Source of the DNA: Escherichia coli
GTDB taxonomy: Bacteria > Pseudomonadota > Gammaproteobacteria > Enterobacterales > Enterobacteriaceae
Assembly: GCF_048403405.1 (NCBI RefSeq)
Contig: NZ_CP183129.1
Reading direction: 5' to 3' (one strand)
DNA length: 64,000 nt
Under the pieces are notes generated by a model, which searched no databases, was not told the origin of the DNA, and saw only the letters and a program-made list of their open reading frames with translations. Position 1 is the stretch's first letter; every line of letters begins with the position of its first letter. The position numbers were made by a program, and so were the translations under genes. Below, in pieces: positions 62,153 through 62,644 of the stretch.

Positions 62153-62554
62153 TCATGTCTGTGACGCTAAAGTAACAAAGTATTCACCTTATGTCCATAC
62201 AGGTTTTGATTGAAATCATGAAACTGTGCACATTTTAACAACTTGACATATATAACGTTTCAAAGTTGTAACTATGCACAAATGTAGACTTTACGTAGGA
62301 AAGGGATTTTTTAACGATTATTAAACTATAAAAATCCGAATTGAACCGATTCACTTACCAATTTATCGATTTTTAATTCATATGTAATGAATTTATATTC
62401 ATTGTATATGTTGAGGGGATTTGAGGCTGACATTTACAAACGGTTCCTTTTTAAGCAACTCATCTTCAACCATGCATAAAGCGGGTGCATTCGCTGCCAC
62501 ATACCATTATTCTTGATCTGACGGAAGTCATTTTGTAACAATTCAAACTTCCTT

Positions 62555-62575
62555 GATGTAAACAAATAAATACAA
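62555..62575 (+). promoter_or_regulatory. TyrR-box-like element (TGTAAA-N6-AATACA) in aroP promoter region
   Basis: Half-site matches to TGTAAA-N6-TTTACA read about 70-90 bp upstream of aroP ATG; further TGTAAC/TTACA-like half sites nearby. Confidence 0.3.
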
Positions 62576-62644
62576 CAAACGGAATTGCAAACTTACACAC
62601 GCATCACTGCGTAGATCAAAAAAACAATCACCGCACGAGGTTTC

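Follow-up and report, generated by a model that had tools for sequence, protein, structure and literature searches.

What do the palindromes in the long AT-rich DNA between pdhR and aroP of Escherichia coli stand for, and does this spacer hold binding sites or a small RNA beyond those already described? A reading of the sequence alone had suggested that it might. We examined the locus in a stretch of 64,000 nucleotides of E. coli DNA (the window), in which the spacer covers 540 bp (62105-62644) from the ATG of pdhR at 62104 on the minus strand to the ATG of aroP at 62645. The GC content of the spacer is 34.6%, against 51.5% for the window as a whole, and is lowest (22%) at 62300-62399. The sequence-only reading had recognized the locus as a pdhR-aroP divergent regulatory region, and this was right: a 651-bp query covering the pdhR<>aroP control region, flanked by annotated pdhR and aroP genes, was matched in 5423 of 5426 complete E. 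coli genomes. Over these 651 bp the window shares 99.8% identity with strain 1190 and 96.2% with K-12. A K-12 coordinate is obtained as 184196 minus the window coordinate.

We put at about 85% the probability that the interval is the known bidirectional control region serving pdhR-aceEF-lpd leftward and aroP rightward, that the features flagged in it are documented or consensus regulator sites, and that the flagged palindrome constitutes box 2 in an ArgR operator of the canonical 39 bp. The description of the spacer as dense regulatory DNA was also borne out, with sites for, or evidence of targeting by, PdhR, TyrR, ArgR, FNR, CRP and Cra in addition to the aroP promoters (Table 1). The spacer is furthermore among the PlaR targets found by gSELEX.

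Table 1. Features of the pdhR-aroP spacer and its borders, in coordinates of the 64,000-nt window.
Feature	Coordinates	Strand	Description
pdhR coding sequence, 254 aa	61340-62104	-	ORF list and RefSeq annotation of matching E. coli records
PdhR operator AATTGGTcttACCAATT	62136-62152		+11 to +27 of the pdhR transcript; perfect in 79/79 spacers
pdhR promoter	62162-62197	-	TSS 62162; -10 TACTTT 62169-74; -35 TGGACA 62192-97; hexamers inferred from spacing
FNR-consensus site TTGATtgaaATCAT	62206-62219		9/10; centre about -50.5 of pdhR promoter; mean conservation 0.94; pattern in 78/79 spacers
Conserved upstream block of pdhR promoter	62225-62283		CRP/ArcA-like TGTGCACATTTTAACA (62225-40, centre -70.5), TTGACA (62243-48), AACGTTTCA, TGTAACTATGCACAAATG
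Cra (FruR)-consensus box TGAACCGATTCA	62342-62353		Matches published motif gcTGAAtCGaTTCAgc at 11/12 core positions
Second TTACCAATT, PdhR half-site look-alike	62355-62363	+	Exact 9-mer copy of operator half
ARG box 1 ATCGATTTTTAATTCATA	62365-62382		14/16 of consensus; K-12 allele TGTGATTTTTAATTCAAT
Palindrome extension, 14-nt arms	62379-62410		Arms 62379-92 and 62397-410, 86% complementary; inverted repeat I1; absent from K-12 and intermediate alleles
ARG box 2 AATGAATTTATATTCATT	62386-62403		16/16 informative positions of consensus WNTGAATWWWWATTCANW; the palindrome flagged by the sequence-only reading
PAIusp insertion zone (usp plus imu1-3, about 4 kb)	62433-62453		Island in about 20% of E. 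coli; described by Rihtar et al. 2020 (PMC7142922)
GCATTCGCTGCCACA, ortholog of RamA ChIP-seq site GCATTCGCGGCCACA of Salmonella aroP<>pdhR	62487-62501		Conserved block
aroP divergent promoter P3	62501-62530	-	-10 TGGTAT 62501-06; -35 about 62525-30; TSS about 62494; coordinates mapped in this analysis
aroP major promoter P1	62508-62520	+	-10 TATTCT 62508-13 (inferred hexamer); TSS 62520
TyrR strong box TGTAAAcaaataAATACA	62557-62574		10/12 of consensus; conservation 0.83; best TyrR match, starts TGTAAA at 62557
Probable TyrR weak box CGGAATtgcaaaCTTACA	62580-62597		8/12; keeps G2 and C17; 23 bp centre-to-centre from strong box; conserved GGAA and TTACA blocks
aroP coding sequence (start)	62645-64000	+	Second ATG at 62648

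The 7-bp inverted repeat AATGAAT-TTAT-ATTCATT had been placed at 62383-62405; it is present, and its limits are those of ARG box 2. Together with ARG box 1 and a 3-bp spacer (TGT) it makes up a 39-bp ArgR operator at 62365-62403, both boxes facing the same side of the helix. When the 64 kb were searched for ARG boxes with no more than 2 mismatches, these two were the only matches, and they lie side by side. The arrangement agrees with the published ArgR-binding motif of two 18-bp palindromes separated by 2-3 bp, 39 bp in all (Cho et al. 2015, PMC4381063). A third perfect 7-bp inverted repeat in the spacer (AATTCAT/ATGAATT, 62375/62387) turned out to be the junction of ARG boxes 1 and 2. The suggestion that the palindromes represent uncharacterised sites was thus not upheld, the flagged repeat being part of the ArgR operator and the third repeat its internal junction. 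Essentially all palindromes are explained by mapped sites, and the K-12 TSS map shows no further start in the spacer, which is in essence the outcome that the sequence-only reading had named as its own refutation.

Binding of ArgR at this locus has been published for K-12. An earlier ChIP-chip study and the ChIP-exo work of PMC4381063 report ArgR upstream of the aroP promoter, as a double peak-pair and in an 'upstream (U)' mode relative to RNA polymerase; this occupancy was measured in K-12, from which the window allele differs at 17 positions around the operator. From motif and position we infer that the published K-12 peak sits on exactly these boxes, at K-12 121793-121831. Measured from its centre, the operator lies at approximately -136 relative to aroP P1, -222 relative to the pdhR TSS and +110 relative to P3. 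By the binding definition aroP is a member of the ArgR regulon. In a published expression compendium the gene clusters with genes that track Lrp and not with the Arginine iModulon, and the supplement of a 2026 iScience paper holds no aroP entry.

Conservation of the operator was followed in species-representative genomes. The scan gave 80 PdhR loci, 78 of which have aroP divergently upstream with spacers of 524-653 bp; with the window this makes 79 spacers, from Enterobacteriaceae plus Serratia. The ARG-box region aligns poorly across this set because the boxes keep a 21-bp register while the surrounding bases turn over, as the motif scan revealed. ARG boxes of at least 14/16 are confined to the ~60 bp that follow a conserved Cra-like anchor, cTGAACCGATTCA, with 38 matches there and 0 elsewhere in the 79 spacers. 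A box of this quality starts at +11 or +32 after the anchor in 34 of the 62 anchor-bearing spacers; the offset is +11 bp in 23 species and +32 bp in 7, including the window. As judged from these motif positions, a positionally fixed ArgR operator persists across genera while the neighbouring sequence changes.

The best surviving alternative sees the palindromes as arising by chance in AT-rich 'promoter island' DNA bound by H-NS, and as specific to no regulator. The composition of the spacer lends itself to this explanation. Of the dinucleotide shuffles of the spacer, 46% contained one or more perfect 7-bp inverted repeats with loops of at most 10 nt, and 8.7% contained three or more, three being the number observed. 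Palindrome counts therefore fail to separate the spacer from its own dinucleotide shuffles and, since 7-bp palindromes are common in shuffled sequence, significance must rest on motif identity and conservation. Inverted repeats I4, I8 and I9 (62304-62375) fall in poorly conserved A/T tracts. The window allele also carries a perfect TCGATAAATT, an H-NS-type sequence which we take to be the H-NS nucleation motif (Lang 2007). A catalogue of 'promoter islands' includes K-12 positions 121694-122036 and marks them as H-NS-associated (PMC3661553). However, the PdhR box is perfect in all 79 spacers, the ARG boxes hold their fixed register across genera despite the turnover around them, and occupancy by both ArgR and PdhR has been published. 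As an account of the palindromes at large we regard chance as improbable; for the minor inverted repeats and for the second copy of TTACCAATT it probably holds.

On the pdhR side, the perfect PdhR box announced by the sequence-only reading was found just outside the interval that it had discussed, which begins at 62153. The box is the palindrome (A)ATTGGTnnnACCAAT(T) with a GGTnnnACC core, scores 14/14 and lies downstream of the pdhR TSS; it is the K-12 site at 122052, likewise scored 14/14 in Table 1 of PMC7660256. The pdhR TSS corresponds to K-12 position 122034, with 1225 reads and a 58-nt leader (Kim 2012, supplementary file 2). Upstream of this start, 62165-62283 forms an almost fully conserved block in the 79-spacer alignment. 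Its segment 62166-62189 shows no variation among 23 of the spacers, with Serratia among them, and across all 79 it is at least 75% (mostly at least 90%) identical to the window.

An FNR-consensus site lies within this block. In published work aroP/pdhR is an FNR ChIP-chip target (PMC1802558), and PMC3974632 treats the region in terms of an Fnr switch. Further upstream, the conserved stretch 62225-62283 also contains direct repeat D1 and inverted repeats I2, I5 and I6. CRP, ArcA and Cra are all known to target pdhR, and the ascription of individual boxes in this stretch to regulators is tentative. A plus-strand promoter built on the perfect TTGACA of this stretch was considered and rejected, since no acceptable -10 follows it and no mapped TSS lies there.

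Next to the ArgR operator stands a box matching the Cra motif gcTGAAtCGaTTCAgc (PMC5888115). The sequence TGAACCGATTCA is the only match to TGAANCGATTCA in the 64 kb, where 0.05 would be expected, and GAANCGATTCA occurs at the same position in 62 of the 79 spacers. This conserved box is the sole candidate in the spacer that lacks clear documentation, and it may simply be the Cra site reported at pdhR.

The sequence-only reading had also noticed a second half-site resembling half of the PdhR box, and an exact copy of TTACCAATT does lie between the Cra-consensus box and ARG box 1. The 64 kb contain 2 copies against 0.6 expected, which is mildly unusual; the other copy is inside the PdhR box at 62144-52. 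One could see in the second copy an auxiliary PdhR half-site, one that provides a second contact or lets the DNA loop to the main operator at a distance of 211 bp. It repeats the 9-mer of the operator half exactly, shares this only with that operator within the 64 kb and is invariant in six E. coli alleles, but it is altered in usp+ E. coli. At that position TTACCAATT is found in the window and two Escherichia spacers only; E. albertii reads TTACCAACT there, and in other genera the Cra-like box and the ARG box are separated by unrelated sequence. Extra half-sites occur at scattered positions in 7 of the 79 spacers. PdhR moreover requires a palindromic GGTnnnACC core, and the list in PMC7660256 that accompanies this rule has a single PdhR box for the spacer. 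The partner half is absent at 62355-63, where one half stands by itself, and a consensus scan at a threshold of 70% gave no further PdhR matches in the spacer. An auxiliary role for PdhR is thus highly improbable, and the pattern of occurrence suggests that the copy is probably there by chance.

On the aroP side the start of P1 corresponds to K-12 position 121676 (Kim 2012). PMC7142922 places P2 ~21 bp downstream of P1, gives the -10 sequence of P3 and a comparison of its -35 between K-12 and UPEC, and describes P3 as transcriptionally non-productive in K-12. The same paper describes TyrR boxes upstream of P3, and TyrR binding for K-12 and S. bongori. Left of P1 the window carries the ortholog of a RamA site that was mapped in Salmonella (PMC10268841 Table 1). 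The 79-spacer alignment shows conservation of the P1/P3 core (62476-62512) and of the TyrR strong box.

TyrR boxes require a symmetric G and C. The sites found here are of the TGTAAA-N6-TTTACA type, a strong box being paired on one helix face with a candidate weak box that keeps these two bases. Of the TyrR-like half sites proposed near aroP, TGTAAA was well placed and opens the strong box, whereas TTTACA at 62432-37 is 120 bp off and belongs to no box. From its sequence the weak box is probably the one at 62580-97, whose aroP-side position fits the truncation data of PMC7142922. It replaces an earlier candidate at 62534-51 (TGTAACaattcaAACTTC) that has no right half-site, is unconserved and lies on the wrong side for those data.

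A small RNA had been suggested as another possible content of the spacer, but a search against Rfam at E<=1 returned no family, a consensus scan detected no terminator-like sites, and the K-12 TSS map of Kim 2012 has exactly two starts in the spacer, those of pdhR (62162) and aroP P1 (62520). A promoter consensus scan gave 0 matches as well; as the real pdhR and aroP promoters score below its threshold, this zero is uninformative for promoters. Conserved small ORFs were also considered, and were discarded because the ORFs of the spacer run through unconserved stretches.

The palindrome itself might still be read as an RNA element, whether a small-RNA hairpin, a terminator or a 5' leader transcribed from P3 or an unmapped promoter. 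The window allele does form a 14-bp hairpin (z -2.75 on the plus and -3.19 on the minus strand), and P3 transcripts run leftward through the palindrome. Yet the stem consists of A/U only, has no U tract and shows no terminator-like site, and neither mapped plus-strand TSS lies upstream of the hairpin. The lack of an Rfam family at E<=1 and of an extra TSS in the spacer counts against an RNA element too, as does the non-productive character of P3 in K-12. The extended stem is moreover allele-specific, and across genera conservation is seen in the pattern of DNA half-sites, not in a stem. We consider such an RNA element very unlikely.

To describe the variation around the operator we compared alleles within E. 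coli. The window and K-12 differ at 25 positions in 651 bp, and 17 of these lie within 62365-62432 (binomial P about 5e-13 as computed for at least 18, and somewhat larger for 17). Among six E. coli alleles the inter-box spacer and the flanks vary, while the cores GATTTTTAATTCA and GAATTTA[T/A]ATTCATT are nearly fixed. The only core change in these six is one A/G; ABW_A19 has GGTTTTTAATTCA. K-12-type alleles read TGATT in box 1 and CGAAT in box 2, and the window type reads CGATT in box 1 and TGAAT in box 2. The window allele combines the perfect ARG box 2 and the weaker box 1 with the H-NS-type sequence and the 14-nt palindrome arms.

With a 141-bp query for this patch, 39 of 5426 genomes were at least 99% identical to the window, 131 matched at 95-99% and 244 at 90-95%, while 3950 matched at 80-90% and are K-12-like. 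The other 1062 gave no match because PAIusp is present and their patch has strongly diverged. The window thus carries a rare allele, neither the common K-12 type nor the usp+ type. In usp+ E. coli a diverged homolog of the ArgR operator stays on the pdhR side of the island, whose usp gene is labelled tssD by PGAP, and the left flank is 73-74% identical to Salmonella against 61-63% to usp- E. coli. From sequence comparison there is tentatively an imperfect copy of the ~21-bp stretch 62433-62453 at each end of PAIusp.

That gain or loss of PAIusp produced both the palindrome and the substitution cluster, as a recombination scar or an attachment site, deserves very little credence. In its favour, the island's insertion zone lies only 30-50 bp to the right with its imperfect ~21-bp duplication, 17 of the 25 differences from K-12 are clustered at 62365-62432, and the usp+ flank has more in common with Salmonella than with usp- E. 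coli. Against it, ARG boxes in the same register occur in genera without the island in the spacer, conservation is found in the core of the palindrome and variation at non-critical positions, and PAIusp encodes no integrase. Recombination may explain the hypervariability, but not the palindrome, which we continue to read as an ArgR box.

A more speculative proposal concerns the patch as a whole. The 70 bp beside the PAIusp insertion point could be a hotspot of regulatory allele exchange, with alleles that differ measurably in ArgR or H-NS occupancy and, as a result, in how arginine tunes aroP, P3 or, for usp+ strains, the genotoxin gene usp. We hold this to be unlikely, though less so than any of the alternatives above. 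Natural E. coli alleles do vary sharply around the ARG half-site cores and not within them. If the allele differences alter ArgR or H-NS occupancy, they would provide a natural series on the question why ArgR binds promoters that it does not dominate, and a clue to the wiring of the usp genotoxin island into this spacer.

The sites can be combined in a model of the control region. PdhR represses its own synthesis from the perfect palindrome that spans +11 to +27 of the pdhR transcript, until pyruvate releases it, and FNR, CRP/ArcA-like and further conserved boxes are found upstream of the pdhR promoter. At the other end, TyrR with aromatic amino acids occupies the strong and weak boxes downstream of P1, and P1 is repressed via recruitment of RNA polymerase to the overlapping divergent P3, a mechanism described in PMC7142922. 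Arginine-loaded hexameric ArgR on 62365-62403 would bend the DNA by 70-90 degrees and wrap ~93 bp. Because the ArgR site lies well upstream of the RNA polymerase footprint ('U' mode), simple promoter occlusion would not be possible, and ArgR most likely modulates aroP modestly through DNA architecture. It could do so in one or more of three ways: by altering P1/P3 competition or upstream contacts, by insulating the divergent promoters from each other, or by blocking leftward transcription from P3. The anatomy and conservation in this model come from the present analysis and the occupancy and TSSs from publications on the K-12 ortholog; the presumed effect of ArgR binding on expression is its weakest link.

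Both the region and the flagged palindrome are already known and belong to well-studied E. coli control DNA. Since the palindrome is a known docking site of ArgR the finding is an ordinary one, and its value as a discovery is small. There is a modest gain for annotation in the base-level coordinates of the ArgR operator, promoters and TSSs in a non-K-12 allele. The ArgR operator and the adjacent Cra-consensus box also form a module that is conserved in many genera of Enterobacteriaceae.

The operator resembles the ArgR operators of the arginine regulon in having two 18-bp imperfect palindromes matching WNTGAATWWWWATTCANW with a 3-bp spacer and a total of 39 bp, and it is orthologous to the K-12 locus at which ArgR occupancy was measured. 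It differs in position. ArgR operators at arg genes or hisJ overlap the promoter, whereas the aroP operator lies ~136 bp upstream of the TSS in 'U' mode; since it does not overlap the promoter, occlusion is unlikely and the effect on expression weak or unclear. It also differs in allele, since in the window box 2 is perfect and box 1 weaker, where K-12 has one core mismatch per box (TGATT, CGAAT). Candidate and known Cra boxes can be compared in a similar way: pdhR is a reported Cra ChIP-exo target, and the candidate box precedes the main pdhR TSS by 186 bp and lies downstream of P3.

The system of TyrR-controlled aroP promoters P1, P2 and P3 (Wang, Yang and Pittard 1997-98; Rihtar 2020) is recovered in the window, with 97% identity to K-12 and with the P3 -10 TGGTAT, the P1 TSS and the strong box at the expected positions. 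Single-base changes from K-12 are found in the P3 -35 (AGTCAT vs AGTCTT) and among the six central bases of the strong box (caaatA vs caaatT). The PdhR operator shows no difference from that of pdhR-aceEF-lpd (Quail and Guest 1995; Anzai 2020), being the same 17-bp palindrome at the same position. With respect to the PAIusp site (Rihtar 2020), the window represents the same spacer in an island-free ('empty') state and, unlike K-12-type or usp+ spacers, carries a minority allele of the central patch.

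The spacer between pdhR and aroP is occupied by PAIusp, an island of about 4 kb, in about 1060 of the 5426 complete E. coli genomes searched. The island carries usp and three immunity genes, and in CFT073 it additionally contains an IS3 element. On the pdhR side of the island, the flank in a usp-positive E. coli locus (L005, positions 304-475) is a diverged homolog of window positions 62285-62453. The identity of this flank was about 62% with the window and 73-74% with the spacers of Salmonella arizonae and diarizonae (L013, L016). Since the flank is nearer to these Salmonella spacers than to the window, the sequence comparison suggests that homologous recombination brought in PAIusp together with foreign flanking spacer DNA. 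The left crossover of such an import would be at the ultra-conserved block that ends at about 62284. Both ends of the island (L005 1-640 and 3980-4620) harbor an imperfect copy of a window segment of about 21 bp, and these copies, which are of low complexity and only about 15/21 identical, could represent a target duplication. In the usp-positive loci L002-L005 the usp genotoxin gene was named 'type VI secretion system tube protein TssD' by RefSeq PGAP, a label due to the N-terminal Hcp domain of Usp.

Features of the pdhR-aroP spacer and the start of aroP (window coordinates)
Feature	Position	Strand	Sequence or remark
Conserved block 5' of the pdhR TSS	62165-62283		about 120 bp
Upstream half of the conserved block	62243-62283		holds TTGACA, AACGTTTCA, TGTAACTATGCACAAATG
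Near-consensus Cra (FruR) box	62342-62353		TGAACCGATTCA; directly upstream of the tandem ArgR operator boxes
H-NS-type motif	62360-62369	-	perfect TCGATAAATT
Variable patch	62365-62432		
Segment copied at PAIusp ends	62433-62453		TTTAC..N9..TTTTTTA
Opening codons of aroP	62645-62650	+	ATGATG

The block upstream of the pdhR transcription start was at least 75% (mostly at least 90%) conserved across 79 species, and the 24-bp sequence GCTAAAGTAACAAAGTATTCACCT, which comprises the -10 element and promoter spacer of pdhR, was invariant in the 23 spacers inspected. The constraint on this block exceeds what the promoter hexamers by themselves account for, and its upstream half yielded no confident regulator assignment. 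The Cra-type box was found at the same position in 62 of the 79 spacers; this predicted box could correspond to the reported Cra ChIP-exo site of pdhR, but need not.

An Enterobacteriaceae-type pdhR-aroP locus with 93% PdhR identity was also found in a record titled 'Chryseobacterium sp. 18061' (CACSKA010000010.1). Its spacer length is nearly identical to that of 'Citrobacter sp. 18056', which was sequenced in the same project, and the assembly is probably mislabelled or contaminated.

In some alleles, those of strain 2020N21-246-1 (L006) and of usp-positive strains (L005), the first aroP codon is ATA and RefSeq places a 1371-nt gene from the second ATG. These alleles suggest that the second ATG, at 62648 in the window, may be the functional start of aroP.

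The variable patch holds 17 of the 25 differences between the window and K-12. It is hypervariable among E. coli, with several intermediate alleles, and the window allele is rare, being matched at ≥99% identity over 141 bp in 39 genomes. The window allele contains TCGATAAATT, absent from K-12, a sequence reported as the motif at which H-NS nucleates with high affinity (Lang 2007).
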